A stretch of 64,000 nt of DNA, taken from assembly GCA_964397995.1 (NCBI GenBank), contig CAYNLG010000007.1, forward strand, positions 4,998 to 68,997, read 5' to 3'. Positions within the stretch are counted from its first letter, which is position 1, and every line of letters begins with the position of its first letter. This DNA comes from an uncultured Anaerolineales bacterium. Lineage in GTDB: Bacteria > Planctomycetota > Phycisphaerae > FEN-1346. The notes beneath the pieces were generated by a model. The model was not told the DNA's origin. It worked only from the letters and a program-made list of their open reading frames with translations, and did no database searches. Positions 19,961 to 54,000 of the stretch are shown here, piece by piece. A program made the position numbers and the translations under genes.

Positions 19961-19978
19961 CACGGAAGGAGAGACGCG

Positions 19979-35286: not shown

Positions 35287-36201
35287 GTGCGACACGCCCT
35301 GCTCGTAGCCTTGACCGCCCTGGCCGCCGGCTGCGGCGCGCCTGTCCTTCAGATGCACCACGGACCGGTGGCGGACCTGCCCCTGCCGGCGACGGTGGAG
35401 ACGATCGGGGTGCGGCCGCTGGCGGTGACGGGGGCGGACGCGGCCTCCTGCACGGCGGCCGTGCGGGCGGCCCTGGCCCAGCGGCTGGCCGAGGGCGGCC
35501 TTCCGTACCGCGCCGCCGCCGGCGACCACGCCGACGCCTGGCTCGGCGGCTCGGTCGCCGTGACCGCCAGGGACACGCCCGGGACGCGGACGGTGCGGCA
35601 GATGGACCCGGCCACGGGCACACTGGGCCCGGTGACGCTCGAGACGCTCGTGCGGACCGTCGAGGTCGAGACGGCGCTGGTCCTCTCGGACGCGACGTCG
35701 GCCAAGCGGCTCGTCGCCGCCGCGGCCACCGAATCGTACGACTCGCGGCACGACCCGCGGGTGCGCGGCGAGTTGGGGCTGGACCGGCCGGCCGACCCGG
35801 CGCGTATCCCGCCCCTGGAGGCCATCCTCGACGACCTGCTCGGTCGCTGCGTCGGCACGTTCGTCGCGATGCTGGAGCCGGTGCCGGTGACAGGCGAGGT
35901 GGCGATGCGGCCGGTGGACGACCCGCTCGGCCAGCGGGGCCTGGGGGCGGCCGCCTCCGGCGACCTCCGCGCCGCGGTCGCCTACTTCCGGCGGGCCCTG
36001 GAGCGCGACCCGGGCCACCGTGCCGTGCGGTTCAACCTGGCGGCGGCGCTGGAGGCGTCGGGGTCGCTGGCGGCGGCGCGGCAGGAGTACCGGTTGCTGG
36101 CCGAGACCGCGGACGATGCCGAGGCCCAGGCCGGCGTGGTGCGCCTGACGCGGGTCCTGGGGGCGCCGCTGCGGCAGGAGCCGCCTAGCCCCGCGCCTTG
36201 A
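35287..36201 (+). CDS. hypothetical lipoprotein with a C-terminal TPR-like region
   Basis: GTG at 35287 is preceded by GGGAGGGAG. Lipobox VRHALLVALTALAAGC. The C-terminus AVAYFRRALERDPGHRAVRFNLAAALEASGSLAAARQEY is TPR-like. Confidence 0.65.
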   Translation: MRHALLVALTALAAGCGAPVLQMHHGPVADLPLPATVETIGVRPLAVTGADAASCTAAVRAALAQRLAEGGLPYRAAAGDHADAWLGGSVAVTARDTPGTRTVRQMDPATGTLGPVTLETLVRTVEVETALVLSDATSAKRLVAAAATESYDSRHDPRVRGELGLDRPADPARIPPLEAILDDLLGRCVGTFVAMLEPVPVTGEVAMRPVDDPLGQRGLGAAASGDLRAAVAYFRRALERDPGHRAVRFNLAAALEASGSLAAARQEYRLLAETADDAEAQAGVVRLTRVLGAPLRQEPPSPAP

Positions 36202-38386: not shown

Positions 38387-38475
38387 CGGTCGCGTCCTCG
38401 GTTGGGGCTCGGGCGAGGGGGGGCGCGGCAGGCGCGCCGCCTCAGGCCGCCCCTGCCGCCCCCCCGCCACGCATC

Positions 38476-39246
38476 TTACGACGCCTTGGCCTGCTGTATC
38501 CAGCGGTAGTAGTCGGTCATCGTCAGGTCGGCCGCCGACGCCTCGTCGCAGAAGACCCGCGTGTCCGGGTGATACTGCAGGGCGCTGGCGGTGATCATGC
38601 AGGTGACGGGCCCTTCGAGCATGGCCGCCAGCGCCGGCGCCTTGTTGGCCCCGTTGACGACCATCACGCAGGTCCGGGCTTCCATGATGGAGGCGACGCC
38701 CATGCTGATGGCGTGGCGCGGCACGTCCTCGGCCTTCTCGAAGAAGCGGCTGTTGTCGTCGATGGTCTGCTCGGTCAGGGTCACCAGGTGAGTCCGCGAC
38801 CCGAGGCTCGTGCCGGGCTCGTTGAAGGCGATGTGGCCGTCGGAGCCGATGCCGAGGACCTGGACGTCGATGCCGCCCGCGTCGGCGATGGCCTTCTCGT
38901 ACTCGCGGCAGAAGGCGGCGGGGTCGGCGGCCGTGCCGGAGGGCACGTGAACGCGGTCTTCGGGCACGTTGATGGCGCCAAACAGGTTCTCGTGCATGAA
39001 CGCCCAGTAGCTCTGCGGATGGGCGTGGTCGAGGCCCACGTACTCGTCCAGGTTGAACGTCGTGCACCCGGAGAAGTCGAGGCCCTCCTCGCGGTGCAGG
39101 CGGATCAACTCCTGGTAGAGCCCCACCGGGCTGGAGCCGGTAGCAAAGCCGAGGACGGCGTTCGGCTTGGCCCTGACGACGTCGGCGACGACGGCGGCCG
39201 CCTTCGCGCTGAGTTCCTCATACGACGAACAGATTGCCACATCCAT
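38476..39246 (-). CDS. nagB: glucosamine-6-phosphate deaminase
   Basis: ATG is preceded by AGGAG. GFATGSSPVGLY, FNLDEYVGL, LGIGSDGHIAFNEPG. The length of 256 aa is typical. Confidence 0.92.
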   Translation of the reverse strand: MDVAICSSYEELSAKAAAVVADVVRAKPNAVLGFATGSSPVGLYQELIRLHREEGLDFSGCTTFNLDEYVGLDHAHPQSYWAFMHENLFGAINVPEDRVHVPSGTAADPAAFCREYEKAIADAGGIDVQVLGIGSDGHIAFNEPGTSLGSRTHLVTLTEQTIDDNSRFFEKAEDVPRHAISMGVASIMEARTCVMVVNGANKAPALAAMLEGPVTCMITASALQYHPDTRVFCDEASAADLTMTDYYRWIQQAKAS

Positions 39247-39440
39247 GTCGTGTCTCCTCTTGCGTGACCAGAACCGCGTGCGACATGCACTCCCGCCCGG
39301 GCCGACGCGGCCGCGGGACCGGGAACCGGGGCCTCGATGCTAGACCCGCTTCAAGAGGTGTGGCAAGCTTTTTCGAGGCGGTTGCGGCACAGCGTGCCGC
39401 CAGGCGACGCGCCCATGCGGCACCGGCGCCCGCAGCGCGC

Positions 39441-39468
39441 AAAAAGGTGGCCGCCGGGCGGCACTCGC
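39441..39468 (-). terminator. possible intrinsic terminator after the ABC ATPase gene
   Basis: The minus strand reads GTGCCG-CCCGG-CGG(C)CAC followed by CTTTTT, 6-10 nt after the stop at 39474. The stem is short and bulged. Confidence 0.3.
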
Positions 39469-39473
39469 GCCCG

Positions 39474-40355
39474 TCACGCCGTCCGGATGCCGCCCACCGA
39501 GATGGCCAGCTCGCCCCGGGCCTTGATGTCGGTGATCCGCCCGTCGGTCAGGTAGACGACGCGGTCGGAGGCGGCCAGCATCTTGTGGTCGTGGGTCGCG
39601 GTGATGATCGTGACGTGCATCTCGGCCTTCAGGTGCTCCAGCAGGGCGATGATCTCTTCGCCGGTCTTCAGGTCCAGGTTCCCGGTCGGCTCGTCCGCCA
39701 GGACGATGGCCGGGTCGTTCGCCAGGGCCCGGGCCACCGCGACGCGCTGCTGCTGCCCGCCGGAGAGTTGGACCGGCCGGTGCAGGATCCGGTCGCCCAG
39801 GCCGACGGTCTCAAGCAGGTCGGCGGCCTTGTGCTGGGCGTCGGCCTGGGTCACCCCGGCCAGGAGCATCGGCATCATCACGTTCTCCAGGGCCGACGCC
39901 ACGGGGATCAGGTTGAACGTCTGGAAGATGTAGCCGATCTTGTGGCACCGGAGCCAGGCGAGCTCGAAGGTGTCGAGGGCGGCGATGTCGACCTCGTCGA
40001 TGAAGACGCGGCCGGTGTCAGGCTTGTCGAGGCCGCCGATCATGTTGAAGAAGGTCGATTTGCCGGACCCGCTGGGGCCCATGATCGACACGTACTCGCC
40101 GCGCCGCACCGTCAGCGACACACCGGCCAGGGCGTGGACCTCCTCCTCGCCCATGCGGTAGACCTTGCGGACGTCGACCGCCCGCACCACGTGGGCCGCC
40201 AACAGCGCTTCGGCGGCCGCCCGGTCGTCGGCGTCGTGCGGGCTCTCGCCCGGGCCGAAGGGCGGCGCGGGGACGTCGCCGACCGGGTGGGCGGCGGGTT
40301 CGTCGGGGAGCGCCCGCGGCTCGGGCGTTTCGCGTCGGGCGTCGGCGTCCGTCAC
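39474..40355 (-). CDS. ABC transporter ATP-binding protein (MacB/LolD/FtsE type) with a ~55-aa acidic/Pro-rich N-terminal extension
   Basis: GTG at 40353-40355 is preceded by GGAAGGA. Walker A GPSGSGKST, signature LSGGQQQRV, Walker B IVLADEPTGNLD, H-loop ATHD. Confidence 0.9.
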   Translation of the reverse strand: MTDADARRETPEPRALPDEPAAHPVGDVPAPPFGPGESPHDADDRAAAEALLAAHVVRAVDVRKVYRMGEEEVHALAGVSLTVRRGEYVSIMGPSGSGKSTFFNMIGGLDKPDTGRVFIDEVDIAALDTFELAWLRCHKIGYIFQTFNLIPVASALENVMMPMLLAGVTQADAQHKAADLLETVGLGDRILHRPVQLSGGQQQRVAVARALANDPAIVLADEPTGNLDLKTGEEIIALLEHLKAEMHVTIITATHDHKMLAASDRVVYLTDGRITDIKARGELAISVGGIRTA

Positions 40356-40392
40356 AGCGTGTCCTTCCGCGTCGTCTTTCCGAGGGGGGAGG

Positions 40393-41124
40393 TCAGACTT
40401 CCGTGCGCAGAGCGTCGATGGGCAGCATCCGGGCCGCCCGCCACGCCGGGTACAGGGCGCTCGCGAGCGTCAGGCCCACGCCGACGACCACGGCCACGCC
40501 CACGAGCCTCGCCAGCCCGCCCCACGGGGCGTAGGCCCAGGCGGCCTCGCCGTAGAGGGCCCCGCCCTCGACAAAGGCCAGGGCGAGGCCGATGGCGACG
40601 CCGGCGGCGGTACCGAGGAGGCCCTGGAAGAGCGTCTCCAGGAGGAACAGCTCGATGATGAGCGAGTCGAGGGCCCCGAGGCACTTCATGGTGCCGATCT
40701 CGCCGTAGCGCTCCGTCACGCTCATGAGCATGGCGTTGAGGATGCCGACGAAGCTGACCATGAGGGCGAGGCCCACGAGCCACCACGTCTGGGCCCGGGC
40801 CTCGGCGTCGTCGAGGGCGGCAAGGACCCCCTTCCGCTGGAGCGTCTCCAGGAGCCGCTGGGGACCCTCGTCGGCGACGCTCCGCATCAGGGCGTCGCTG
40901 GCGAGGATGTACGTCAGGAACGCCAGGGCCAGCACGATGCCGCTGGTGACGAGCAACGACCGGCCGAGGCGGACGCGGATGCTCCGCCAGGCGATGCCGA
41001 CGGCCTTCGCGAGCGGCAGCTTGATGGCGCGGCGGATTTCGGCGTGGCTCGGGCCGCGCGCACCGTCCCCGGCCGCGCTGCCCGAGTGACCCGTGCTGGC
41101 CGTGTGGCGATCCATTCCGCGCAT
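40393..41124 (-). CDS. small FtsX-family permease (4 TM, minimal periplasmic loop)
   Basis: ATG at 41122-41124, 1 nt after the upstream stop (alternative ATG at 41115). TM1 follows AWRSIRVRLGRSLLVTSGIVLALAFL. The FtsX core is NAMLMSVTERYGEIGTMKCLGA...LYPAWRAARMLPIDALR. Confidence 0.8.
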   Translation of the reverse strand: MRGMDRHTASTGHSGSAAGDGARGPSHAEIRRAIKLPLAKAVGIAWRSIRVRLGRSLLVTSGIVLALAFLTYILASDALMRSVADEGPQRLLETLQRKGVLAALDDAEARAQTWWLVGLALMVSFVGILNAMLMSVTERYGEIGTMKCLGALDSLIIELFLLETLFQGLLGTAAGVAIGLALAFVEGGALYGEAAWAYAPWGGLARLVGVAVVVGVGLTLASALYPAWRAARMLPIDALRTEV

Positions 41125-41125
41125 C

Positions 41126-43126
41126 CTAGACCGGAAGCTTGATGACGCTCTTGCTCATGAAGACGATACCGAGGCTGAACATGGTCGCGAGGCCCACCCC
41201 CGCGGTGAACCCGGCGGCAAAGACGACGCGGACCTTCGGCCAGCGGTCGCCGAACCGCTTGCGCATGACGTAGCGCCCGATGAGGGCCCCGATGAACATC
41301 GGCACGATGGCGTGCGGGGCCGACTGGTCGAGACCCCGGATGACGCCGTACACCAGGAACACCGGCAGCCCGAACCGGCTGAGGAAGATGTAGGTGCCGA
41401 CGGCCAGAACGAACCCGAGGGTCAGGAACTCGGGCCGGAACGCCTCGTGGAACGGGCTGAACTCCTCGCCGGGCAGCGTGGCCGAGTACATGAGGCCGTG
41501 GTTGAAGGCCCGGAGCTCCCAGAACTTGTTCGCGTACGGGAACAGTTCGCTCGGGACCGAATCGATGGACCAGATGAACTGGCTGAAGAGGATGCGGCCG
41601 ACGATCATGATGGGGAAGATGAGGAGTTCGGCCTTGATGAGGCCCGTGAAGCGGGTGCCCGTCAGCTCCGTGGTCCGGAAGAACTGGGCCTGCTGGGCGT
41701 AGTTGTGGAGCGGGATCGGCGCGAACCAGATGGCCGCCCCCTTGTACCCGGAGAGGATGAACATGGCTTCGCGGATGAAGGGGACCTGGACCTGGCGGCC
41801 GACGATGCCCTCCATGCGGGTCGAGACGTAGTTGATGAAGGGCGTGTAGACGAAGCCGAAGAAGACGAGGATCCACAGGGGGAACTCGTGGCCCGGGACG
41901 GTGGGGGCGGCGTGGTTGACCAGGACATAGCTGACGGCGATGTAGATGAGGGTGGAGACCACGTAGATGCCGATGCCGACCCAGATGCTGAAGTCGCCGC
42001 GCGCCTTGTCCGGGCGCCAGAGGCGGCTCCAGTCGACCTGGGGGGCGTCGTCGCCCCCGGTCTTGCTGCGGCGGAGCTTGGCGACGACGTGCCAGATGCC
42101 GATGGCCGCCACCGCCAGCGCCAGGCCCAGCCCGAACGAGAAGTAGAAGTCCATCGTGTTCGACTGGATGGTTTTGATGCCTCCGATGCCGCGCTCCCAG
42201 TTGTCGAGCAGCCCGACATGGTACAGGACGGGGTTGGCCACCATCGTGATGAGGACGCCGATGAAGGCCCCGGCCATCGCCCAGAACGGCAGGACCATGC
42301 CGATGACCACGAACGTGAGGTCGAAGCTGATCATGACGGCGAAGGCCGGCAGCGCCGTGTCGGTGTACTCGGTCAGGTCGACGAAGGGGATGGGCAGGAT
42401 GTTCAGGCCCTCGCCGAACAGGGCGCTCGTGATGTTGGGCAGCGCCAGGTAGATCGCGCCGAAGACGGCCCCGGCCATCGCCCCGATGCTGAAGGTCCGC
42501 CACCGCCAGGTGTCCTTGCGGCTGGAGGCGTCGGCCAGGGCGGTGGTGCCCATGGCGTTGACGGGGGCCATCGGGAACGGGAGCTGCTCGACGTCGCTGG
42601 TCAGGCGAAAGAGGACGTACCCCAGGCCGAAGTGATTGAGGCGGCTGAGGGCGAGCGTCAGCAGGCTCAGGCCCACGGGCACCAGCCAGGCCCGCACGAG
42701 GAAGCTCCGCTGGGCCAGGACCGCCGGGTCGGACGGGGCGAACCACTCGGGGATGTGGTCGGTGATGCCGAGCTTGCGCATCTCCTCGCTCTGGACGATG
42801 AACTGCTGCCAGAGCAGCCCGCCGCCGAACCCCCCGAGGCCGGCGTGGACCACCGCCCCGCACATGTAGAAGAGCACGAAAATCTCGGGCCGGTTCAGCT
42901 GCTTGAACGCCCGCCGCGCCACCTCGACGTAGAGGATGACCGTCACCCACTGGGCCGCCGGGCCCATCTCGATGCCCGCCACGAGCTGCATGTACATCTG
43001 CGCGGGGGTCATCAGGAGGCCCACGAACAGGGCCATGACGACGGTCCCCCAGCCGAACCCCTCGTGGTACGTCTCGGGGGGCTCGACGAGGTTTCGGAAT
43101 TCCTGGAGTTCTTTGTCTTCTTTCAC
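41126..43126 (-). CDS. polytopic membrane protein, 666 aa, about 14 predicted TM, distantly OPT-like (possibly DUF6784/6785-type)
   Basis: GTG start (MKEDKELQEF). Hydrophobic segments run throughout. A LPFPMAPVNAMG stretch recalls the OPT-family LPFP-x-G-x-A motif. The family call is tentative and from memory. Confidence 0.78.
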   Translation of the reverse strand: MKEDKELQEFRNLVEPPETYHEGFGWGTVVMALFVGLLMTPAQMYMQLVAGIEMGPAAQWVTVILYVEVARRAFKQLNRPEIFVLFYMCGAVVHAGLGGFGGGLLWQQFIVQSEEMRKLGITDHIPEWFAPSDPAVLAQRSFLVRAWLVPVGLSLLTLALSRLNHFGLGYVLFRLTSDVEQLPFPMAPVNAMGTTALADASSRKDTWRWRTFSIGAMAGAVFGAIYLALPNITSALFGEGLNILPIPFVDLTEYTDTALPAFAVMISFDLTFVVIGMVLPFWAMAGAFIGVLITMVANPVLYHVGLLDNWERGIGGIKTIQSNTMDFYFSFGLGLALAVAAIGIWHVVAKLRRSKTGGDDAPQVDWSRLWRPDKARGDFSIWVGIGIYVVSTLIYIAVSYVLVNHAAPTVPGHEFPLWILVFFGFVYTPFINYVSTRMEGIVGRQVQVPFIREAMFILSGYKGAAIWFAPIPLHNYAQQAQFFRTTELTGTRFTGLIKAELLIFPIMIVGRILFSQFIWSIDSVPSELFPYANKFWELRAFNHGLMYSATLPGEEFSPFHEAFRPEFLTLGFVLAVGTYIFLSRFGLPVFLVYGVIRGLDQSAPHAIVPMFIGALIGRYVMRKRFGDRWPKVRVVFAAGFTAGVGLATMFSLGIVFMSKSVIKLPV

Positions 43127-43151
43127 GGTTCGGCCCGTGGTGCGCCGCCGC

Positions 43152-46100
43152 TCAGGCGGCCGGCGCGGGTCCCATCAGGTCCTTCGCGTCGCGAATATAG
43201 TCGAGGACGCGCTCCATCTTGAGCTGGCGCCAGCCCAACAGCTGCCGCCGCAGGTCCCCGAGGAAGACGCGGTTGAGCTTCCACCAGGACCGTTCCTGGC
43301 CGGATTCGCGGGTGAGGTCCACGTCGATTTCGTAGACGGCCTCGTCCTCGGTCGGGCGGATGACGAGGCGCAGCGTCTGGCGGACGCCCAGGTCGTACGG
43401 GGCCAGCCAGAGGGTCGCCTCCAGGCCCAGCGCGCCGGCCTCGGGCGGCAGCGGGCGCGCGTGGGCGGCCGTGAACGACCCGATGCTGCCCTCGCGGTGG
43501 GCGTCCAGGTACTCCAGCAGGAACGCCAGCACCCCGCCCGCCGTCTGGCCCGTCACGGTGAACGGGAGCGTGTCACGGATGCGGCCGTCCTCGGGCCGCG
43601 GGACGCGCCAGGTCATGCGGTTCGAGGGCACCGCCAGGCGCCCCGCGAGCACCGCCGGCACGAGCGACGACAGGACCACGATCCCGAGGACCATGAGCAT
43701 GACGGCCACGGCCTGGGTGCCGGAGTAGTTGAGCGTGATGCCGCCCAGCCACCCGAGCGACGCCAGGGCCGTCGCGACGCCCTGGCCGACGACGTAGCCG
43801 AAGACGGCGCCCATGAGGCCGTAGGTGGCGGCCTCGGCCAGGAAAAGGGCCCCGACATGGAGCGGCGCCAGGCCCAAGCTCGTGTAAATGTAGATTTCCT
43901 TCTTGCGCTCGGCGATCGAGCTCAGCATCGTGTTGAAGATGATCAGGCCCGCGATCACCAGCGGGATCAGCAGGCTCTTGGGGGCCTGCGGCAGAAGGGG
44001 CGTCGTGACGACCACGCCCGCCCCGGCCTCGGGCGAGCCGAAGTAGATCGGGAACGCCAGCCGCTCCGCCAGGGCGTCGGCCACCGCGTGGGCATCCTCG
44101 CCGTCGGCCGCCCCGACGACGATGCTTCGCACCGTCGTGTACTTGAGCGGGCGCAGCAACTCCGCCGGCGCGACGAGGAGCTGATTGCCCGGGACGGGCG
44201 GCAACGGCACCTCCGGCTCCAGGCCCTGGAGCTCCGACTCCAGCAGCGAGACGTCCTGCTTCGCGAGTTGCTGGCGCATCTCCTCGCCGAGGGCGGAGTA
44301 GTCGACCGGCGCGAGCGGCTCGCCGTCCAGGTCCTTCGCCTCGCGGTCGAACCGGCCCGCGTCGAACAGGCCCACCACCTCCAGCGGCCGCCCCGCCGCC
44401 ACCACCGTGTCCCCCGGGCCGACCCCGAGCGCTTCGCCGACCGACTCGGCCAGGTAGCAGCCGGCGGTATGCGGCAGACGGTCGGCGAGCTCGGCGAAGC
44501 GGTCCCAGTTCGGCAGCCAGCGGCCGACGCCCGTGATGGCGTCCTCTTCCGGCGCCAGGCCCAGCCCCGCCAGGAGGGAGACTTGGCGCCCGGTGGCGGG
44601 GTTGCGGACGTGGACCCGCCAGTCGCTCTTGTTCGGCCGCGTCCACCAGGCGCGGACGGCCTGGGGGCGGCCGGCGTCGAGCGCCGCCTCCAGCAGCCGG
44701 TCGGCGGCCCCCTCCAGCTTGCGCCGCCCCGGCTGCCGCACCAGCACCCCCGTGTACGGCGCGGGCGTGTCCAGGGTGCGGCGCCGGCGGCCGACGTAGC
44801 TTGAGGACGAGACGAAGCAGAGCAGCGCGAACGTCACGAGCACGACCGTCAGGCCCGTCAGGCCCGTCCGCAGCTTCCGTTTCCGCATGTTCGCGATGCC
44901 CAGCCGCAGCGCCGTCACCAGGACGCCGAACCGGCTCGTGCGGGCGCCGCTGGCCTCGGCCCGCCCCGTCCGCGCCTCCTCCAGGCCCACCTCAAACTTG
45001 CCGTACACCACCGAGAGCACCAGCAGGCTCATGAAGATGATCGCGAACGCCATCACGATCATCAGCGGCTGCCCGCTGATCCGGAACGCCGGGTGGAAGC
45101 TCCAGAGCAGCGCCGTCATCACCGCGAAGATCAGGAGCATCCCGGCGATCTGGCGGTAGATGTGCGGCGTGGCGATCAGGAGCCGCTCCATCGCGAACGA
45201 GAACGGCACCAGCGCCAACAGCAGCAGGATCGCCCCGCGGATCACGTCGTTCGCCATGTCGCGCACCGACTGGTACGCGCGAATCTCGTTGGACAGCGCG
45301 CCGGAGGCGGCGGCGTAGAGGGCGCGGCCGTCGTCGGCCCGGCCGGCCGCCTCGGCCTCCTCCAGCAGCCCGCCCGTCCGCGCGTGCAGCGCGTCGATCG
45401 CCTCGCTCGTCACCCCCGCCCGCGCGTAGGTCGACAGCCGCCGCCGGTCCAGACGGTACAGGTCCCGGGCCGCCTGGTGGGCGGGATGGCGCGGCAGGCC
45501 GCCGCCGGCGGGGAACCCCGGCATCAGGCCGCGCGTCGACACCGACGGGTGCGCCGCCGGGTCCAGCGTGTTCAGGAACGAGGTGCTGTTGCGGCCGGCG
45601 GCCACCTGGAGGATGAGCGTCCAGTGGAGGCCGTGCTCCGTCAGGGCCGCCATCTGCCCCTCGTAGAGCGCCAGCTGGATGCGCCGCGGCGGGCTGCCGC
45701 TCCGGGCGTCCAGCATCTGGCCCCGTCTCAACGCCGCCAGGAACCGCGGGTCGCGCAGGCCCGAGAGCGCCGTCTCCGTACACGTGAAGACCACGCCCCG
45801 GAGCGGCGTCGGGTTCCGGTCCGACGGGTTCAGCGCCAGGGTCGTCCCGCGCTCGACGCGCAACAGGTCGATCGCCCGGATCAGCCGCCCGTCCTCGGCC
45901 ATCTGGTACGCCAGCAGCAGCCGCTTCGTGTGCTGGTCACGCTCGTTCTTGTGGGTGCCGAACCGCTCGGGCAGCAGGTCGAAGTAGGCGGCCCCGTCGG
46001 CCCCGGTCCGCACCGCCTCCCAGCGGCGCAGCCCGAGTGTCTTGGCGGGGTAGGTGGGCAGGAAGCGCGGCCCCTGGATGTGGCCCGGGGCCAGCACCGC

Positions 46101-48098
46101 CAGGTACCCCTCCATCGCCAGCCGCGCCACCGGTTGCCCCGGCGCCTGGTCGACCACCCGGGCCCGCATCCGCTTGTACTTCGGCGTGGGCGGCGGCTCG
46201 AACGCGAAGTCCGTCGCGCGGACCAGGCGGCCGACCAGCACCCACGTCGCCCGCGCCTGGGGCCCGAGGCGCGCCCAGTCCAGCCGGTCGGCCCGGTCCT
46301 GCGGCGTGTCAAGGCGCCACTTGATCGCGTCCAGGGCCCCCCACGTCAGGGCCCGCTGCCCGAAACTCTCGGCCGGGCTGGTCACCGTGCCGATCCGCCC
46401 GGGGACGAACGCGTCACCGCTCTCCAGCGTCCGCGTCGGCTCCAGCTCGACCACCGGGCCAAGGGCGCCCGGCCACAGGCGGTCGGCTTCGTCGCGGCGG
46501 AGGGTTTCGAGCCACCGCATGAAGGACCGGGCATTCCGCGTCTCGCGCAGGGCCAGGTGCCGGCAGTAGGGGACCGGCCCGACCGCCGGCCCGCCGTCCG
46601 ACAGGTCGAGGCCCAACAGGAACCCCACCGGCCGCGCCCCCTCCGGGGCCGCCAGGCCGAGGGCCTCGGCCACCGCCAGCCGCAGCTCGTTCCGCCGGCT
46701 ATGCAATGCCAGCCGCCCTTGGGCCTCCTCGTACTGGCGCCGGATGACGCCGCGCACCCGACCCCAGAGCGCCCGTGCAAGCGGTTCGCGCTCCGCGGTC
46801 ACGGGGGTCTCGGTCACGAGCTGGAGCTGGGCGTCGCGGAAGGCGCGGCGCCGTCGGTCGAGCTCCGCGATCTCCTCCTGCAGGGCGGCCTTGGCGGGGC
46901 CCGTGGCCTCGAAGGCGGCCAGGCGCTTCGGGCGGAGGTCCGTCTCGATGGCGACGATCTCGCGGTCGACCTCGTCGCGCACGTAGCTGTGCAGCGTGCG
47001 GACCTCGTAAAGCCCGGCCAGCGGGTCGCCGCTCGCCTCCAGCTCGGCCGCACGGGCCTCCAGCTCGCCGTACTCGGCGGCGTAGCCCTCGTCTTCCTGG
47101 ACGTCGTCGGCCCGGTCCCAGGGGAGGACGGCCAGGGCGGCCAGCATCTCCCGGCTGCCGCGCTGGTCGATCGCGAACCCGTCCAGAAACGTCACGAACA
47201 CCGGGCGCGGCGGGGGCGCGGCCGCCAACTGCCGCACCAGCTCCAGGGCGAAGGCCGCGTCCAACGCCGCGTCGGCCCCCGGCGCCTGGTCGGGCACCAG
47301 GCTCATCGCGTCCACGGCGACAGCGAGGCCGAGGGCCTTGCGGCCGTCGGGACCGCCCGCCGGGGGGATGAGCACGTAATGGTTCACGGCCTCGACCTTG
47401 GCCCAACGGGCGCGCACCGTCAGCCGCCCCTCCGGCACCGCCCCGGCCCGCAGCGCCGCCGCCAGCGGCCCGTCCGACACGTAGGCGCGCGGCATGTTGA
47501 TGGGGATCCACACGCGGTGCGACCGGAAGTCCTCCGCCGTCTCGGCCTCCGAGCCCAGCAGGAGGACGGCCGACGGGCCGTACTCGACGACGTGTTTCCA
47601 GGCCCCGCCACCCGTCGATTCCATGACGGCAATCTGGCCGCGCAGGCTCTCGGCGGGGATGTCGTCCAGGCCGCCCTTCCCCACGTAGACGAGGCGGCCC
47701 GCGAGGCCCTCGGCCGGCGTCGTGTTCAGCCGCACCGCCGCCGGCCACAGGGGATGGACCGGGTGGCGGCCGGCGTGGGGCCCGCCGGCGACCTCCAGGT
47801 ACGCCTCCTCGGTCCGCGGGACGGTGACCGTGAAAGGGTGCGTCCAGACCCGGACGCCGCCGACCGCCCGGAGCCGCTCGCCGAGGGCGGCCACGGCCCG
47901 GTCGTGGGCCTCGGTCCCGACGACGCGCGTCGAGAAGCCCGCGAGCCATTCGGTGTCGCGGCGGACGGCGGCGAGGTCCGGCCCATCGGCACCGACGGGC
48001 GCGGGCGCGGCTTCGGCGCGCGCCGCCCCGGGCCCCGCCGACACGAGCAGCGCAAGCGCGAGCGCCGCCGTGACCCGTCCTATCCTGTCCGTGCGCAT
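43152..48098 (-). CDS. 1648-aa fusion: signal peptide + PA/M28-like periplasmic domain + coiled coil + ~470-aa periplasmic region + 3 TM + MacB/FtsX-type permease + ~160-aa cytoplasmic tail
   Basis: ATG at 48096-48098. Signal peptide MRTDRIGRVTAALALALLVSAGPGAARA. PA-like LRGQIAVMESTGGGAWKHVVEYGPSAVLLLG. M28-like AVAVDAMS...PGADAALDAAFALELV...FLDGFAIDQRGS. FtsX TM1 follows RLGIANMRKRKLRTGLTGLTVVL. FtsX core is FNTMLSSIAERKKEIYIYTSLGL. The hand-derived topology is self-consistent. Confidence 0.8.
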   Translation of the reverse strand: MRTDRIGRVTAALALALLVSAGPGAARAEAAPAPVGADGPDLAAVRRDTEWLAGFSTRVVGTEAHDRAVAALGERLRAVGGVRVWTHPFTVTVPRTEEAYLEVAGGPHAGRHPVHPLWPAAVRLNTTPAEGLAGRLVYVGKGGLDDIPAESLRGQIAVMESTGGGAWKHVVEYGPSAVLLLGSEAETAEDFRSHRVWIPINMPRAYVSDGPLAAALRAGAVPEGRLTVRARWAKVEAVNHYVLIPPAGGPDGRKALGLAVAVDAMSLVPDQAPGADAALDAAFALELVRQLAAAPPPRPVFVTFLDGFAIDQRGSREMLAALAVLPWDRADDVQEDEGYAAEYGELEARAAELEASGDPLAGLYEVRTLHSYVRDEVDREIVAIETDLRPKRLAAFEATGPAKAALQEEIAELDRRRRAFRDAQLQLVTETPVTAEREPLARALWGRVRGVIRRQYEEAQGRLALHSRRNELRLAVAEALGLAAPEGARPVGFLLGLDLSDGGPAVGPVPYCRHLALRETRNARSFMRWLETLRRDEADRLWPGALGPVVELEPTRTLESGDAFVPGRIGTVTSPAESFGQRALTWGALDAIKWRLDTPQDRADRLDWARLGPQARATWVLVGRLVRATDFAFEPPPTPKYKRMRARVVDQAPGQPVARLAMEGYLAVLAPGHIQGPRFLPTYPAKTLGLRRWEAVRTGADGAAYFDLLPERFGTHKNERDQHTKRLLLAYQMAEDGRLIRAIDLLRVERGTTLALNPSDRNPTPLRGVVFTCTETALSGLRDPRFLAALRRGQMLDARSGSPPRRIQLALYEGQMAALTEHGLHWTLILQVAAGRNSTSFLNTLDPAAHPSVSTRGLMPGFPAGGGLPRHPAHQAARDLYRLDRRRLSTYARAGVTSEAIDALHARTGGLLEEAEAAGRADDGRALYAAASGALSNEIRAYQSVRDMANDVIRGAILLLLALVPFSFAMERLLIATPHIYRQIAGMLLIFAVMTALLWSFHPAFRISGQPLMIVMAFAIIFMSLLVLSVVYGKFEVGLEEARTGRAEASGARTSRFGVLVTALRLGIANMRKRKLRTGLTGLTVVLVTFALLCFVSSSSYVGRRRRTLDTPAPYTGVLVRQPGRRKLEGAADRLLEAALDAGRPQAVRAWWTRPNKSDWRVHVRNPATGRQVSLLAGLGLAPEEDAITGVGRWLPNWDRFAELADRLPHTAGCYLAESVGEALGVGPGDTVVAAGRPLEVVGLFDAGRFDREAKDLDGEPLAPVDYSALGEEMRQQLAKQDVSLLESELQGLEPEVPLPPVPGNQLLVAPAELLRPLKYTTVRSIVVGAADGEDAHAVADALAERLAFPIYFGSPEAGAGVVVTTPLLPQAPKSLLIPLVIAGLIIFNTMLSSIAERKKEIYIYTSLGLAPLHVGALFLAEAATYGLMGAVFGYVVGQGVATALASLGWLGGITLNYSGTQAVAVMLMVLGIVVLSSLVPAVLAGRLAVPSNRMTWRVPRPEDGRIRDTLPFTVTGQTAGGVLAFLLEYLDAHREGSIGSFTAAHARPLPPEAGALGLEATLWLAPYDLGVRQTLRLVIRPTEDEAVYEIDVDLTRESGQERSWWKLNRVFLGDLRRQLLGWRQLKMERVLDYIRDAKDLMGPAPAA

Positions 48099-48105
48099 CG
48101 GTGCC

Positions 48106-50109
48106 TCAGAACGGTTGGACCTTGATCGCCAAGTACGTCTTGCCGAGGGCCACCAGGACGGCCGGGACGATGCCCCAGATGACCGCCGCGAAGACCTCGC
48201 CCATGATCAGCCCCATCACCACCGGCCGCGCCTGACGCAGCAGCCGCGCGCCCCCGTAATGGACGAGGCCGATCTTGACAAGCCAGCCCAGGAAGACGCT
48301 GGCGGTGGCCTCGCGGCCGTAGAAGGTCTCGACCATGAGCAGACCGATCGGGTGGACGGGCCAGTTCGGCGACGCCAGGCACGCCAGGTACAGGGCCAGG
48401 GCCAGCCCCACGCCGAACAGGACATGGGCCGGCTGGTTGTAGGGTGGCTGGCGGAGGTAGCCGTCCCGCCACTGCTGGAGGTCCTTGGCCCCGCCCTGTA
48501 ACCGCCCGACGCCCCAGCCCGAGATCGGCTGCTGGGTGCCGTCGATGGTGGCCGTGTGGTGGTACGTGCCCCAGAGGTGGACGGCGCCGCAAACGACCAC
48601 GCCGACCAGGAGGACGGCCAGCATCAGCCAGATCATCCGCCGGTGCCGGCGCGGGCCCGCCGTGTCGTCCAGGCTGAGGGCGTGGGTTGCCATGACCGTC
48701 GTGTTCACCCGCGAGGTCAGGTTGAAGAGCATGCACACCACCGCCTGGAACCAGAGGCTGGGCAGGCTGATCCACGAGACCGGGGCCATCTTGACGAAGG
48801 CCGTCTCGTACCCCGTGTCGACGCGGAAGAACGCCAGGCCCGTCTCGGCCACCACGCGCGTCGCGATGAGCACCACCATCAGCGCGAAGACCGTGTAGAA
48901 GACCGCCCACGGGAGCTGGACCCCCACCCACAGCATCCAGGCGAACATGCCAACGGTGCCCAGGCTGAAGAGCCAGCCGGCCCGCTGGTTGCGGCGGTCG
49001 ACCTCGTCGCGCGGGCGGCGAACCATGGCCCGGGCGACGGTCGCCCAGTGCGACCGGCCCAGGTACAGGATCACCGCCGCCACCGCCACCATCGCCCCCG
49101 ACCGGTGGTCCGCGACGGTCCGCCAGTGATGCGGCGGGTTATAGGAGGCCACCAGCATCCGGTGGATGCCGTAGGCCAAGCCGATGAACCAGATCGAGAA
49201 GCCGATGCGGCTGGGCATCAGGAACGCCACGCCCACGAAGACGAAGTAGATGCGGCTCTTGACGAGGTAGCCGGGGAAGTTCTGCCACGGCTCGTCCGAG
49301 AAGACCGACCGCAGGTTCCATTCGATGGGAACCGCCGGCACGCCCCCGGGGTCGTACTTCTCCAGGCCCGCCAGCACGTGGATGACCATGACGGCGCCGG
49401 CGGCGATCCAGAACCCCTTGCTGCGGAAGAGGGGCGGCAACCCGTGCCCCCGCCCGGGGTCCTCGATCAGCGACTGCTGCACCGCCACCAGCGGGAACGA
49501 CAGACGCTCGTTCTCCCGCCACTGGGGCAGCACGATCAGCGCCATCCCCAGCATCATCATCCACGAGGCCGCCAGGAACACCCCCCACGCCAGCAGCGGC
49601 GGCAGCCAGGCGCCCCACGGCAACGCCTGCCCCGGCTGCAACTCCGTCAGGAACGCCTCCGACACCGGCGTGTCCTTGCCGAAGCCGACCACGTCCGGGA
49701 ACAGGCTGGGCGGCAGGGCCATCTGCTCGTACGCCTCGGCCACCTCCTTGTTCCGGCTCACCAGCACCGGCACGTTGGCGATGGCGTACGGCAGCAACCG
49801 CAGGAGGCCCTGCCCCGGCAGGACCGACCCGACCAGCAGCAGGCCCAAGACGACCGCCAGCTCGCGCGACCGCAGCGCCCACGCCGACCTCAGCGCGTGC
49901 AGCAGCGGGTTGACCCCGAGGACGATGAGCAGCAGGACGAACAGGGCCGCCACCGGCAGGTAGCTGTCGGAAATGAAGGCGTTGCCCAGGATGAAGTTGT
50001 TGTAGGGGGTCCAAACCCAGACGACAAGGCACCCGGCCAGGCCGATGAGCACGGCCGGCAGCCAGCGGAGGCGGCCCTCGCCCCGGTTGTCGGCCCCGTG
50101 CCCGATCAT
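48106..50109 (-). CDS. polytopic membrane protein (~667 aa), distantly OPT-like (possibly DUF6784/6785-type); first gene of the operon
   Basis: Its stop lies 7 nt before the next start. ATG at 50107-50109 (MIGHGADNRG); the track start at 50190 is a TTG alternative. About 14 hydrophobic segments, with ERLSFPLVAVQQSL echoing the LPFP stretch of 41126..43126. Confidence 0.75.
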   Translation of the reverse strand: MIGHGADNRGEGRLRWLPAVLIGLAGCLVVWVWTPYNNFILGNAFISDSYLPVAALFVLLLIVLGVNPLLHALRSAWALRSRELAVVLGLLLVGSVLPGQGLLRLLPYAIANVPVLVSRNKEVAEAYEQMALPPSLFPDVVGFGKDTPVSEAFLTELQPGQALPWGAWLPPLLAWGVFLAASWMMMLGMALIVLPQWRENERLSFPLVAVQQSLIEDPGRGHGLPPLFRSKGFWIAAGAVMVIHVLAGLEKYDPGGVPAVPIEWNLRSVFSDEPWQNFPGYLVKSRIYFVFVGVAFLMPSRIGFSIWFIGLAYGIHRMLVASYNPPHHWRTVADHRSGAMVAVAAVILYLGRSHWATVARAMVRRPRDEVDRRNQRAGWLFSLGTVGMFAWMLWVGVQLPWAVFYTVFALMVVLIATRVVAETGLAFFRVDTGYETAFVKMAPVSWISLPSLWFQAVVCMLFNLTSRVNTTVMATHALSLDDTAGPRRHRRMIWLMLAVLLVGVVVCGAVHLWGTYHHTATIDGTQQPISGWGVGRLQGGAKDLQQWRDGYLRQPPYNQPAHVLFGVGLALALYLACLASPNWPVHPIGLLMVETFYGREATASVFLGWLVKIGLVHYGGARLLRQARPVVMGLIMGEVFAAVIWGIVPAVLVALGKTYLAIKVQPF

Positions 50110-50577
50110 GGCAACCCAGTACCCGTTCCCGGCCCCACTGTAGCAGCCCCACCCGCATAAGCCAGCATTTCCCGCGGGGGTTCCGCACAAATCGCGTGAG
50201 CGCGCCTCGGGCCGGGGCGGCCGCCGTTCCTTTTGGGCTAAGCCTTTCCGCGGGTCTATCCGATAAGGCTAGGGCCCGGGCGGAAAAGCGCGGCCTTTTC
50301 GGGCGCGCCCCGCAAGGGAGACGGCCGCGGCCCAGGGCAACAGGGCTCCTCGGCGGGGCCGGGACTCAGGCGTAAGTCCTTGTCAGAAAAGGCATTACAG
50401 GAGACAGCCCACGGCCACCCACCGCTCGGGAGGCACGGAGCGTTGACAGCCCCCTTCCCGGGCGCATCTTACCGATGACGCACCGGCCGATGGTCGCCCC
50501 TCGCGGGCCGACGCCTCGGCTGACCCCAGCGGCACCGCCACAACCTGCAACCTCCCCTACGCTGATGGAGTCACACG

Positions 50578-50847
50578 ATGACACTCTGGAACCGCACCGC
50601 TCGAGGGGTGATCACGCTCGCGGTGGTCGCCGCCGTTCTGGCAGCCACGGCCGGCTGCAACGAAACCGCGACCCGGACCGCGCCGACGGCGCGGCACCCG
50701 GTCACGACCCTGGTGGCGGCCGACAGTGTGGGCCGCGCCGTCTTCACCGGCGACCATGCCGAGACGATCCTGGCGGCCCGGCGGGCCGACGACGGCCCGG
50801 CGCTGCCCGAGGCGGACACCCCGACGGCGTACGCGTCGGTAGACTGA
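50578..50847 (+). CDS. small hypothetical lipoprotein (89 aa)
   Basis: ATG is preceded by TGGAG. Lipobox MTLWNRTARGVITLAVVAAVLAATAGC. Convergent with tpsA. Confidence 0.5.
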   Translation: MTLWNRTARGVITLAVVAAVLAATAGCNETATRTAPTARHPVTTLVAADSVGRAVFTGDHAETILAARRADDGPALPEADTPTAYASVD

Positions 50848-50922
50848 TCCGGCGCCCTGCCCGACCGCCGGCGTCCGCCGCCGGCCCGCGAATCGCGCCG
50901 GCCGCCGCCTGACCTGACGTCC

Positions 50923-50966
50923 GAAACAAAGCCTCCTCCGCATCGCCGAGGGGTTGCGGAGGAGGC
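50923..50966 (-). terminator. intrinsic terminator downstream of tpsA (may also stop the convergent lipoprotein gene)
   Basis: Perfect 12-bp stem GCCTCCTCCGCA (50931-50942) / TGCGGAGGAGGC (50955-50966) with a 12-nt loop. On the minus strand it is followed by TTTGTTTC (50930-50923). It lies 51 nt after the tpsA stop. Confidence 0.65.
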
Positions 50967-51016
50967 CTCTCTGCGCCGGTCCCGGCCGGGGCCCGGCGCG
51001 GTTCGTTCCTTCAGGG

Positions 51017-54000
51017 TCAGGGACCGGTGGCCACCGCGCCTTCGGCCAGGCTCGGCCCGCCGGCTTCCACAGCCGCCTGCAGCTGCGCCGGCGTCGGGCC
51101 GCCCTCCCACCCGTCCGTCAGGCGGCCGAGCAGCGCACTGGACGCCACGGCATACTCGCGGTCGGTCACGCCGATGGTGCGGATCAGGCGGAGCAGCGTG
51201 GCGAGGTTGTGCATCGTCTGCAGCGCCGGGCCGTGCTCGCCGCTCCGGGCCATGAGGAACCCCACGAAGCCTTCGGGCGGGGCACTGCCGCCGCCCTGAT
51301 ACGCGGACCACGCCTGCTGGAGGCCGGCCCGGATCGCTTCCGTGCTGTCCACCAGCACGGGCTGGCCCGTGACCGGGTCAAGCCGGGTGGTCTTGAAGAC
51401 GGCGTTGTAGGCCTGGACGAGACGGCCGAGGGAACTGCGTGAGAATCGCGGCAAGGCGACCATGACGCGGTCCTGGCCGAAGTTGGCGCCGTAGTCGTCG
51501 ATCTGGCCGCCCGCTTCGAGCACCGACAGGAGCTCGTCGAAGCTGAGGTCGCGCGGCGTAAGGTTGAGTTCCTGGAGGAGGCGGCGGCCGGCGTCCGACG
51601 GCGACGCCTCGCCCGGTTCGGGCGGATCGACGCTGGCCAGGGCCCCGGCCAGGGCGTCCGACGGGTTCATCAGGCTCAGACCCTCGGCCATCAGGTCGAG
51701 CACGACGTTCGTGTTCATGCCGACCAAGTTCTCGGCCGTCAGCGCCCCCTCGTACTCGATCAGGTTGGCCGGGTAGTACCCGCCCACGGCCGCCTGGGTC
51801 CCCAGGACGTCCGTGACGGCGAGGGTGGCGTCGGTGGGGGTCGGCGTGCCCGCCCCGTGGAAGTCCATCTTGCGGGCGATCCAGTCCGGCCTCGCCAGCG
51901 CCGGGTACCGGTTCTCGGCGATGGCCACCTCCTGGATGTTGAGGACCTCGCCGAGGTCGCGGCGGAGGGCCTGGATGTTGGCGGCCCAGACCTCGAAGAT
52001 TTCCAGGACGTTGACGTCGCCGAGGGTCACGTTGCCGCCGCCCACGCCGGCGTCGATGGTCAGGTACCCGATGATGGTCATCTTGTCGTTCTTGTTCATG
52101 CTGACGTTGCCGCCCTCGGTGGTGATGGTCACGTCGCCGGCGCGTTTGAAGATGGTGGCGATGGTGGGCGGGCTGGCGCGGTTGGTGTCGAACTCGAAGT
52201 TCCCGCCGCCGGTGTGGAAGTCGCTGAAGATCTCGATGAAGCGGCCGGCGTTGTAGAGCTGGTCGCCGACGGTGGAGACCTGGCGGAGGTTGATGTCGTT
52301 GCCGGCGTTGACCGTCACCGGGCCGAGGGGCCGGTCGTCGCCGAGGCGGTTGTCGTAGGCCCCGTTGACGCCGTAGCCGACGGGCGCGCCGAAGGTCGAG
52401 TCGATGGCGGCGTTGATGACGAGGGAGCGCGGCGTGAGGAGGGCGTCGGAGTTGATCGTGTTGAACCAGACGTTGAGGCCGTTCACCACGGTGTTCGCCC
52501 CGAGGATGTCCGGGTCGCCGTGGACCTGGTTGCCCGTGGTGGTCACGAGGCCGCCGTTGATCAAGGTGCGGCCGACGCCGTCGGTGAAGAAGCCGCCCAA
52601 GCCGGCGTTGTTGGAGAGCGCCCCGAGCGCGTCGCCGCCGACGGCGCCCTGGAAGATCGTGTCGCCCCCGCCGGGGGTGTTGACGGTCAGGGCGTAGGCG
52701 ACGCCCGCGATGCTGTCGACCGTCTGGTTGAACGTCACGTTGCCCGGGCCGAACTCGGTGATCACGACACCGCTGTCGAGCAGGACCGGGTCGTTGAAGG
52801 TGATGGACGCCCCGTCGGTGTTGATGACGGGGGTGCCGAGGATCGTGTAGTCGGCGGCCGCGTCGTTGTCGGTGGTGATCGACTCGAGGCGCCCCGCGCC
52901 GCCGACCCAGTCGGCCGCCCCGTCGCCGAACCGCGTGATGCCGGCCGCGTTGACCAGCAGCGTCCGGTCGTTGGCGGTCAGGTCGGCGTCAAGTGTCCCG
53001 AGGAACAGGACATCCGAGCCGGCGTCCAGGATCGTGTTGGCGCCGAGGACGACGCCGTCCCGGTAGGTCTGGTCGAGAACGGTGACCACGCGGCCACCGT
53101 TGATGCTGGTAACGCCGGCGGCGTCGGTCTCCACGTTGTTCAGGGGCACCGCCACGCCGACCAGTCCCTGGAACCCCGTCAGCGGCGAGTTGACGAGCAG
53201 CGTGTACGGGCCGGTGCCGTCGCCGTCGACGCTCTTGGCAAAGTCGACGCTCAGGGTCCCCGTGAGTGTGGTGTTCGAGGACAGGTCCACGTCGTCGTCG
53301 AAGTCCAGGGTCGAGCCCGTGACGACGTCGGTATCGAGCGTCGTGGTGCCGGCCGCGTCGGTCTGCAGCAGACCCAGGGCGCCACCGGCGGCGTTGCCGA
53401 CGCGGCCGTGGAACTGGGTCACGGGGGAGGTGATGACGAGGTCGTTGGCCTCGACGGCCTCGCTGTCGACGGTGCCCGCGAAGTCGACCGACGTCGTGCC
53501 GGTCAGGGCCGTGTCGCTACCGACGGCCACGTTGTCATTGAAGTCGAGGACATCGCCCTTGACAAGGGCCGTGTCCAGGGTCGTCGTGCCGGGCGCGTCG
53601 GTCTGGAGCAGGCCCAGGGCGCCGCCGGCGGCGTTGCCGACGTTGCCGCGGAAGCCCGTGGTCGGCGAGTTGACGACCAGGTCGTTGGCCTCGCCGGCCT
53701 CGCTGTCCACGGTGCCGCCGAAGTCGGCGCTCGTGGTGCCGGTGGCCGTCAGGTCGACGCCCAGCGTCACGGCATCGTCGAAGTCGAGGTCGGCGCCCTT
53801 GACGATGTCGGTGTCGAAGAGCGTCGTGCCGGCCGCGTCGGTCTGCAGCAGGCCGAAGGCGCCGCCGGCGGCGTTTCCGACGCGGTTGTGGAAAATCGTG
53901 TCGGGCGAGGTGATGACCAGGTCGTTCGCCTCGCCGGCCTCGCTGTCCACCGCCAGCGCGAAGTCCACGCTGGTCGTGCCCGTCAGGGCCGTGTCCACGC

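Follow-up and report, generated by a model that had tools for sequence, protein, structure and literature searches.

What do five closely packed genes on the minus strand of a planctomycete contig encode, and do their products belong to a single machine? The genes, designated A to E in the order in which they are read, occupy positions 39474–50109 of the window, by which we mean the whole stretch of 64,000 nucleotides analyzed in the present study (contig CAYNLG010000007.1, positions 4,998–68,997, from an uncultured bacterium of the Phycisphaerae). A sequence-only reading of this DNA had described them as an operon built around a giant pseudo-peptidase–permease fusion, B, and its coordinates and spacing were correct, with gaps of 7 nt (A/B), 25 nt (B/C), 1 nt (C/D), and 37 nt (D/E) (Table 1). 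On the present evidence, the five genes appear to encode a pared-down version of a multi-subunit machine that is conserved in the inner membrane of bacteria of the Planctomycetes–Verrucomicrobia–Chlamydiae (PVC) superphylum and Sumerlaeota. Our confidence in its composition and conservation is much higher than that in its mechanism, regarding which we hold, with slightly less than even confidence, that it may be an uptake machine in which periplasmic capture and an ATP-assisted hand-off or gating step would serve the import of a peptide-like oligomer through C and A.

Predicted folds of the five products

Regarding the smallest parts, E was predicted from its sequence to be an ATP-binding cassette (ABC) ATPase of the LolD/MacB/FtsE clade. 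It matched Pfam ABC_tran at 1e-32, and its best NCBIfam matches were LolD (2.9e-69), MacB (5.2e-65), YbbA, DarD, and FtsE, with bacteriocin exporters also among them; it stayed below every NCBIfam equivalog cut-off (232.9 against 307.75 for LolD and 196.8 against 264.85 for FtsE). Its catalytic motifs are intact, namely, Walker A (GPSGSGKST), the signature (LSGGQQQR), Walker B with its glutamate (LADEPTGNLD), and the H-loop. D, which matched Pfam FtsX at 1.2e-13 (51.6 bits, cut-off 25.5), is a predicted minimal FtsX permease, in which hydropathy leaves approximately 40 aa outside between the first and second transmembrane helices (TM1 and TM2); in NCBIfam, it scored 48.2 against 362.45 for lolCE and 19–25 bits against 225–255 for the FtsX models.

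The large permease, B, runs in order from a signal peptide through an M28/PA head with a helical hairpin, a beta-rich region, a helix bundle, and three TM helices to an FtsX module and a cytoplasmic tail. Hydropathy places approximately 920 aa outside, followed by three TM helices at 948–1023, TM1 of the FtsX module at 1078–1096, an outside loop of 272 aa, and a tail of 164 aa; this agrees with the distribution of positive charges and with the topology drawn in the sequence-only reading, which had given approximately 270 aa for the periplasmic domain and 160 aa for the tail. The module matched Pfam FtsX at 2.4e-11 (44.2 bits, cut-off 25.5) and, just under the cut-off of 27, MacB_PCD (PF12704; 1.9e-5, 25.5 bits), and it found YtrF, MacB, LolF, and LolC among the PDB sequences. 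The NCBIfam scores of B were 16.6 against 473 for LolC and 16 bits against 225–255 for the FtsX models. The Pfam and NCBIfam matches and the hydropathy profiles thus bear out the proposal of a MacB/LolD-type ATPase with a large and a small FtsX permease.

Judged by its FtsX domains and ATPase, the system was assigned to the type VII ABC superfamily, which includes MacAB-TolC, LolCDE, FtsEX, YbbAP, and YtrEF. It shares with them the four-TM FtsX domain in both B and D, a putative MacB-like periplasmic domain between TM1 and TM2 of B, and an ATPase of the clade named above, and the two unlike permeases recall LolC and LolE. Unlike these systems, B adds the ectodomain of approximately 920 aa, three extra TM helices, and a conserved cytoplasmic tail, D is almost devoid of a periplasmic domain, and the cluster contains no MacA/TolC, LolA, or EnvC-type partner. 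Membership in LolCDE was rejected because E, D, and B all fall under the equivalog scores and D is without a periplasmic domain, and that in FtsEX because all three score below the FtsE and FtsX equivalogs.

The head of B was assigned to the M28/PA fold from both a model and a profile. Foldseek searches with an AlphaFold2 model of residues 30–955 (predicted local distance difference test score, pLDDT, 84.9; predicted template modeling score, pTM, 0.85) returned the M28/PA aminopeptidases 2ek8 (9.3e-16), BSAP, and PaAP as well as TfR1 and GCPII, within a range of 1e-16 to 1e-9, while a profile of 31 B relatives searched against the PDB found 2ek8, an M28 aminopeptidase with a PA domain, at 6.5e-14 over 23–315 and, weakly, nicastrin at 0.003. 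Pfam M28 found no match in the B protein of the window and scored 51.2 bits in a deep relative, L091, which is described below. The coiled coil that had been noticed is present; it lies inside the M28 fold as an insertion, and not after it as a separate segment. In the model, the M28 beta-strands resume at approximately residue 491 after the hairpin, and the Foldseek alignments to aminopeptidases of approximately 410 aa stretch over some 630 columns.

In the alignment to 2ek8, the HHD motif of the enzyme is replaced by pYD and its EE pair by Ay, by which the histidine of HxD and the Glu-Glu pair are both lost. The first histidine, the catalytic glutamate, and the ligand glutamate are each missing from all of 75 full-length B relatives, and just 38 of them retain the bridging aspartate, the last two M28 ligand positions being judged by motif only; no conserved His or Cys was found anywhere in the ectodomain among these 75 sequences. 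Since the HxD histidine and the Glu-Glu positions are lost in all of them, the head is predicted to be a pseudo-peptidase throughout the family, as had been proposed, and an active peptidase was rejected. The beta-rich region behind the head, for which Pfam gave no match, may resemble a carboxypeptidase-regulatory/transthyretin-like sandwich.

Dead M28 domains of this type are found in nicastrin of gamma-secretase and in transferrin receptor 1 (TfR1), which resemble B in the M28 fold with an inserted PA domain, the loss of the metal ligands and the catalytic glutamate, and the tether to a membrane complex, whereas GCPII, BSAP, PaAP, and 2ek8 are active relatives that share the M28/PA fold with the B head. 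Unlike nicastrin and TfR1, B is bacterial and fused to an ABC permease, carries a hairpin of approximately 150 aa within the fold, and continues into beta-rich and helical domains.

The combination of an FtsX-type engine, a long helical hairpin, and a dead periplasmic metallopeptidase domain also recalls FtsEX-EnvC and the related PcsB, RipC, and CwlO systems. EnvC consists of a coiled coil and a catalytically dead metallopeptidase domain and is driven by FtsEX. B may accordingly be imagined as a fused adaptor that switches on a separate periplasmic hydrolase for the processing of the cell wall or another polymer, with the OPT-fold proteins described below recycling the products. The parallel in layout, with a hairpin inserted in a dead M28 domain, and the homology of the FtsX module to FtsX, MacB, and LolC speak for this explanation. 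However, the cluster contains no conserved hydrolase partner and no evident amidase, the hairpin and the dead domain of B are fused to the permease, the domain is of the M28/PA type and not of the M23/LytM type of EnvC, and the FtsX equivalog cut-offs are far off. The hairpin is also dispensable, being absent from L091, and a second deep relative, L092, is without the whole ectodomain, yet both keep the pairing with an OPT-type gene. We therefore regard an EnvC-like regulator as quite improbable.

The remaining products, A and C, are both OPT-like, as had been suggested, although by different routes. A matched Pfam DUF6785 (2.8e-88, 297.1 bits, cut-off 25) and DUF6784 (1.7e-18, 67 bits, cut-off 26.4) and not Pfam OPT. 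The only significant Foldseek matches of its AlphaFold2 model (pLDDT 94, pTM 0.93) in the PDB were the structures of barley Yellow Stripe 1 (HvYS1), 7wst (3.1e-10) and 7wsr (5.1e-9), with a probability of 1.00, TM-scores of 0.57–0.64, and approximately 14% identity, and the next match had an E-value of 0.03; since the model matches only these structures significantly, A is predicted to adopt the OPT/YSL fold. C reached 2.5e-4 with Pfam OPT (PF03169; 20.3 bits), which is under the cut-off of 25.8. It matched four full-length proteins (P0384, P0405, P0420, and P0381) at 27–31% identity (1e-46 to 1e-60), and these pass Pfam OPT with 42–64 bits; NCBI labels its close relatives "OPT/YSL family transporter" or "peptide transporter". 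Through these intermediate sequences, C is predicted to be a divergent OPT-superfamily permease, and both proteins are thus placed in the superfamily by fold or transitive homology, and not by a curated cut-off. A and C are therefore linked through the fold of the former and the intermediates of the latter, since a direct profile–profile comparison was not significant (probability 4.9%, E 0.008), showing only a shared E-x-L-P-F-P-like motif, and did not establish homology.

Characterized OPT/YSL proteins are proton-coupled importers. A resembles them in its predicted fold, C through the intermediate sequences, and both in their size of approximately 650 aa; they differ in that A is filed under DUF6785/DUF6784, C remains under the OPT cut-off, and the genes of both are linked to those of an ABC engine. 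We found OPT-fold partners described for no type VII system. In a full-text literature search, the scope of which missed most subscription journals, there was no mention of DUF6785, DUF6784, or CARF_m8, no FtsX with PqqD, no OPT with FtsX or MacB, and no description of the system.

Conservation of the gene set and its core

Sixty-four full-length relatives of B were collected at 35–54% identity, and a scan of one genome per species showed that at least 146 species carry a B relative, a lower bound because the scan relied on two exact peptide patterns. The best 80 of these 146 species are all represented by metagenome-assembled genomes (MAGs) and fall into Phycisphaerae/Tepidisphaerales, Pirellulales, Brocadiia, Verrucomicrobiota, Kiritimatiellia, Lentisphaeria/Victivallales, Sumerlaeota, and one Desulfobacterales bin. 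The cluster was found in dozens of species of Planctomycetota, Verrucomicrobiota, Kiritimatiellota, Lentisphaerota, and Sumerlaeota. Since so many species of five phyla share this gene set in a constant order, it was confirmed not to consist of chance neighbors.

When six-frame open reading frames (ORFs) were searched with the proteins of the window, the dominant order was A-B-C-X-P-D-E, often with a second ATPase gene, E'. X is a soluble protein of approximately 315 aa without a match in Pfam, NCBIfam, the PDB, or PADLOC and without conserved catalytic-looking residues; like A and C, it found nothing in a direct search of the PDB sequences and is covered by no NCBIfam model. P is a PqqD-like protein of approximately 125 aa (PF05402, 2.9e-9), which also matched the lasso-peptide and PQQ PqqD models and missed all NCBIfam cut-offs. 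In the 51 species loci that extend at least 6.5 kb beyond B on its downstream side, C follows B directly in 46, X is present in 42, P in 40, D in 42, and E in 40, while 19 carry two ATPase genes and only two have D directly after C; A stands immediately upstream of B in 26 of the 57 loci with enough upstream sequence. A six-frame HMM (hidden Markov model) search at E≤10 found neither X nor P in the window, which is therefore a reduced variant with an unusual A-B-C-D-E arrangement. The co-occurrence across genomes on which the idea of a five-gene operon depended was confirmed by the 51-locus comparison and the linkage holds, but the usual unit comprises seven to eight genes, A-B-C-X-P-D-E(-E').

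The frequent presence of X and P leads to another explanation, in which P, with X, would bind a peptide or another precursor in the cytoplasm, the OPT-fold proteins would carry it across the membrane, and the type VII ABC engine would then push it outward or to the outer layers, as in MacAB, DevBCA, DarBCD, and LolCDE. PqqD domains and the related recognition elements (RREs) are binders of leader peptides in the pathways for ribosomally synthesized and post-translationally modified peptides (RiPPs), and the outward movement of a periplasmic or membrane substrate is characteristic of type VII ABC systems; both fit such an export or envelope-assembly machine, as does the presence of LolD, MacB, the darobactin exporter DarD, and bacteriocin exporters among the NCBIfam matches of E. 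It is also the best explanation for P and X. On the other hand, neither a precursor peptide nor a modifying enzyme, membrane-fusion protein, or outer-membrane factor was seen to be conserved in the clusters, characterized OPT proteins are importers, X offers no catalytic-looking residues, and the window does without X and P altogether. P of most relatives resembles the PqqD-family recognition elements of RiPP pathways, although no maturase family was found in the annotated neighborhoods and no precursor peptide accompanies P, small precursor ORFs not having been searched systematically. Taken together, export is unlikely, though it is a serious candidate.

The rates of divergence distinguish the parts further. 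Among 28 species having all seven, the mean pairwise identity was 66.9% for E, 64.7% for C, 51.5% for D, 48.4% for the B core, 40.9% for P, 38.7% for A, 35.0% for the B ectodomain, and 33.8% for X. C is thus as constrained as the ATPase and is the most conserved membrane component, and A and the B ectodomain are the variable parts. The A family also occurs in tandem arrays, with five copies upstream of B in a Kiritimatiellae bin (L022:1–9793) and three copies without nearby ABC genes in another locus (L089:5253–11974), which suggests that these DUF6785/DUF6784 arrays are a paralogue family of interchangeable modules. The deeply conserved core is B with C and not the set of five genes; A is variable, often multi-copy, and also found alone.

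Since A-family genes stand alone in places and the proposed coupling is read from gene context, an ordinary MacB-type ABC transporter may merely lie beside two independent OPT permeases. We consider this hardly credible, given the B-C order in 46 of 51 loci and five phyla, its persistence in relatives at 25–29% identity, the gaps of 1–37 nt in the window, and the conservation of C at the level of the ATPase.

Two of these distant relatives delimit the oldest part of the system. In L091, a C homologue (29% identity) adjoins a DUF6785 gene and a gene for a 1469-aa Peptidase_M28/MacB_PCD/FtsX protein (MacB_PCD, 44.5 bits), which aligns to B over the head and over 877–1627, keeps the first histidine ("MAHFDS"), and is without the Glu-Glu pair and the helical hairpin. 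In L092, on a contig with 43% GC and with neighboring genes that may be archaeal, an 830-aa protein corresponds to B 862–1641 (25% identity, 3e-56), has no ectodomain, and adjoins an OPT gene. Because this pairing persists in both, the ancient invariant appears to be the B core, namely, the helix bundle, the three TM helices, the FtsX module, and the tail, beside an OPT-fold gene, and both the ectodomain and the hairpin were added later. A distant A homologue was also found in L088 in the order A-X-PqqD-FtsX-ABC-giant FtsX.

The cytoplasmic tail is among the most conserved segments of B, and its motifs APSxExxWxVP, LPFTV, WLAPYDLGVRQ, and QLLGWR persist in L091 and L092, even at 25% identity. 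By itself, it matched no known domain and no PADLOC profile, and its own profile had no credible match in the PDB (best E 0.045, a designed protein); a relationship to X was rejected by direct comparison. As a whole, the system has no close sequence relatives among solved structures for A, C, X, or the B tail, and for B domain-level matches only.

The B core was recognized by PADLOC. PDLC01991 ("CARF_m8--CARF_LolE_TM") matched B 941–1539 at 6.5e-39 over profile positions 63–603 of 810 and the L092 protein at 3.9e-68 (228 bits) over positions 26–682, and the B core also matched PDLC01990 ("CARF_m8--CARF_Beta-galactosidase_LolE_TM"). Presumably, both names go back to the CARF classification published by Makarova et al. 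in 2020. B thus shares the helix bundle, the three TM helices, the FtsX module, and the start of the tail with CARF_m8 LolE_TM proteins and differs from them in its M28/PA ectodomain. Positions ~683–810 of PDLC01991 (approximately 130), which presumably hold the CARF part, were matched by none of B, L091, and L092. As kin of these proteins, which are catalogued among candidate defense genes, the system may be a ligand-regulated membrane effector, the tail of which senses a nucleotide or another signal and thereby gates the membrane module. The strength of the two PDLC01991 matches and the strong conservation of the tail agree with this explanation, but the end of the profile is unmatched, the tail gave no match of its own, PADLOC recognized none of A, C, X, and P, and the fixed transporter synteny in five phyla looks housekeeping or nutritional rather than like a mobile defense island. 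We consider an effector of this type very unlikely. Membership in a known defense system was rejected, the sole PADLOC signal being that of the membrane part of B, and no CRISPR or defense genes were noticed near the few annotated relatives, for which no systematic check was made.

The profile and structure searches place the system in no characterized transporter family and thus failed to refute the sequence-only reading. Its candidate for an undescribed system stands in that no curated family, solved structure, or paper was found, but the B core is already contained in the PADLOC CARF_m8 profiles.

Several loci depart from the usual arrangement. In L003:17212–20683, the place of X-P-D-E after B and C is taken by two proteins of approximately 580 aa with weak dynamin/GTPase P-loop matches. 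A Kiritimatiellota bin (L021:20962–24795) carries a much more divergent second A-like/B-like pair approximately 4 kb downstream of A-B-C, which indicates paralogous systems within one genome. Loci of the Tepidisphaerales type have a conserved protein of approximately 665 aa upstream of B (L001:7681–9684, L003:7433–9424) without a Pfam match; this 667-aa protein was considered as a relative of A and rejected by profile comparison. In both L001 and L003, its gene is closely preceded by genes for an aldose epimerase and a short-chain dehydrogenase.

Cluster boundaries and neighboring genes

The G+C content at third codon positions (GC3) is 0.95–0.97 within all five genes, against 0.74 in the part of the ORF that extends upstream of A to 50190; the most likely start of A is therefore the ATG at 50109. 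For E, GTG 40355 is the putative start, and the 56-aa N-terminal extension that begins there is probably translated because its GC3 is 0.93. The region upstream of A is presumed to be the promoter region of the cluster, although no sigma-70-like site was found in it, and Rfam gave no match within 38000–52000 at E≤0.1. The spacing of the genes and the one terminator-like site behind E suggest a single transcript.

Divergent from gene A lies an 88-aa ORF (50578–50844, plus strand), which has a lipoprotein-like signal (...VLAATAGC...), GGAG before its ATG, and no family match. Beyond it, upstream of the cluster, a 3771-aa ORF (51017–62332, minus strand) was judged to be a real coding sequence by its GC3 of 0.96, and the 3504-aa ORF on the opposite strand to be its shadow. 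Gly, Ala, Thr, and Val abound in the product, for which Pfam gave no match at E≤0.001; a strong hairpin follows the stop of the ORF, and the N-terminus of the product (...NSIINYHRFDI...NGIVYWVNPAGVMFG) resembles the haemagglutination-activity domain of two-partner secretion. Elsewhere in the window, the gene at 2058–6215 (minus strand) encodes a protein of 1385 aa that combines VIT and von Willebrand factor A domains, and further very long ORFs without Pfam matches lie at 9801–17777 and 19205–23464, with shadows on the opposite strand. Downstream of E are a gene resembling glucosamine-6-phosphate isomerase/6-phosphogluconolactonase (38476–39246, minus strand) and one for a DUF4954/DUF6819 protein, the long ORF of which (36185–39067, minus strand) overlaps the former; because of this overlap, its true start is probably further in.

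Table 1. Coordinates in the window of the five genes, the putative flanking signals, and the segments of protein B
Feature	Coordinates	Strand	Remarks
Gene E	39474-40355	minus	293 aa; intact ORF
Gene D	40393-41124	minus	243 aa; intact ORF
Gene C	41126-43126	minus	666 aa; intact ORF
Gene B	43152-48098	minus	1648 aa; intact ORF
Gene A	48106-50109	minus	667 aa; intact ORF
Terminator-like GC hairpin, then T run	39450-39462	minus	12 nt past E stop; consensus match only
Non-coding stretch upstream of A, shared with divergent small ORF	50110-50577		~470 nt
B 1-28, predicted Sec-type signal peptide	48015-48098	minus	hydrophobic core, ARA-EA; inferred from sequence
B ~40-325, first M28 part with inserted PA domain	47124-47981	minus	predicted catalytically dead; family profile against 2ek8
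B ~326-479, long helical hairpin (coiled coil) within M28 fold	46662-47123	minus	model helices 297-450
B ~480-630, second M28 part	46209-46661	minus	invariant GLDLSD and DTPxD motifs
B ~641-841, beta-rich domain(s)	45576-46178	minus	model strands 612-812
B ~872-954, three-helix bundle into membrane	45237-45485	minus	AlphaFold2 model helices 843-925
B 948-1023, three extra TM helices	45030-45257	minus	hydropathy; invariant PF..ERL and HPxF motifs; kept in L091/L092
B ~1060-1486, FtsX/MacB-type permease module	43641-44921	minus	amphipathic helix, TM1, putative MacB-like periplasmic domain (272 aa), TM2-4
B 1487-1648, conserved cytoplasmic tail	43155-43640	minus	alignment: 51% mean column identity

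Proposed function and its significance

Considering these parts, the engine would be an asymmetric type VII ABC complex, in which D and the FtsX module of B are joined by two E subunits (E and E' in many relatives); a heterodimeric engine fits because two unlike permeases and two unlike ATPases occur in the relatives. Binding and hydrolysis of ATP in the cytoplasm would move the TM helices of B and D, and this motion would pass to the MacB-like periplasmic domain of B and then, via the helix bundle and the long hairpin, to the dead M28/PA head, which may serve as a receptor or gate, as in nicastrin and the transferrin receptor, and not as an enzyme. The ABC part would not itself transport. Its work would serve the OPT-fold permeases. 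Of these, C would form the conserved conduit, probably attached to the B core at the three extra TM helices, and A, which varies and is often present in several copies, would confer specificity. In this scheme, a peptide-like oligomer would be captured by the ectodomain, and C would be loaded or gated by the ATP engine.

Uptake is favored because the conserved partner is an OPT-fold permease and because variation is concentrated in the outward-facing ectodomain and in A with its multiple copies. A peptide substrate is pointed to by the co-occurrence of three unrelated peptide-linked families, namely, OPT, M28/PA, and, in most relatives, the PqqD-like P. Import was assumed from the known direction of the OPT family, a member of which, HvYS1, A matches structurally.

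Several points weigh against this uptake reading. The assumed direction has the OPT family as its only source, and the assembly was drawn from genes and single-chain models alone. OPT carriers normally operate without the need for an ATPase. The PqqD-like P and X, both cytoplasmic, are a better fit for export or maturation, and L091 is without a nearby D or E. Glycan-degrading enzymes are frequent in the flanks of several relatives, and one of the related PADLOC profiles is named for a beta-galactosidase-like segment, because of which the substrate may be a glycan or oligosaccharide. In addition, all relatives seen derive from MAGs or metagenome contigs.

A bolder form of the uptake reading, which we regard as possible but doubtful, is that a type VII ABC mechanotransducer physically coupled to OPT-fold carriers represents a new transport principle and an ancient modular uptake system, in which ATP would drive an extracytoplasmic receptor, here a dead aminopeptidase and possibly other ectodomains elsewhere, to load or gate a conduit of the secondary-carrier type. 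Such a system would apparently reach beyond PVC bacteria. Type VII ABC systems have four known jobs, namely, efflux, lipoprotein extraction, hydrolase activation, and lipid extraction, and an obligate partnership with OPT-fold proteins would, if true, be a fifth; it would also wire an ATP engine to a carrier family that is thought to run on proton gradients alone.

The present results provide the first structural and genomic context for DUF6785/DUF6784, with a predicted OPT fold, and B defines what may be a bacterial counterpart of the dead M28 receptors of the nicastrin and transferrin receptor type. The machinery for nutrient uptake is poorly understood in these hard-to-culture phyla, for which the unit of five to eight genes represents a concrete target for genetics and cryo-electron microscopy, and a coupled type VII ABC–OPT uptake system, if true, could account for the uptake of oligomers in PVC bacteria.

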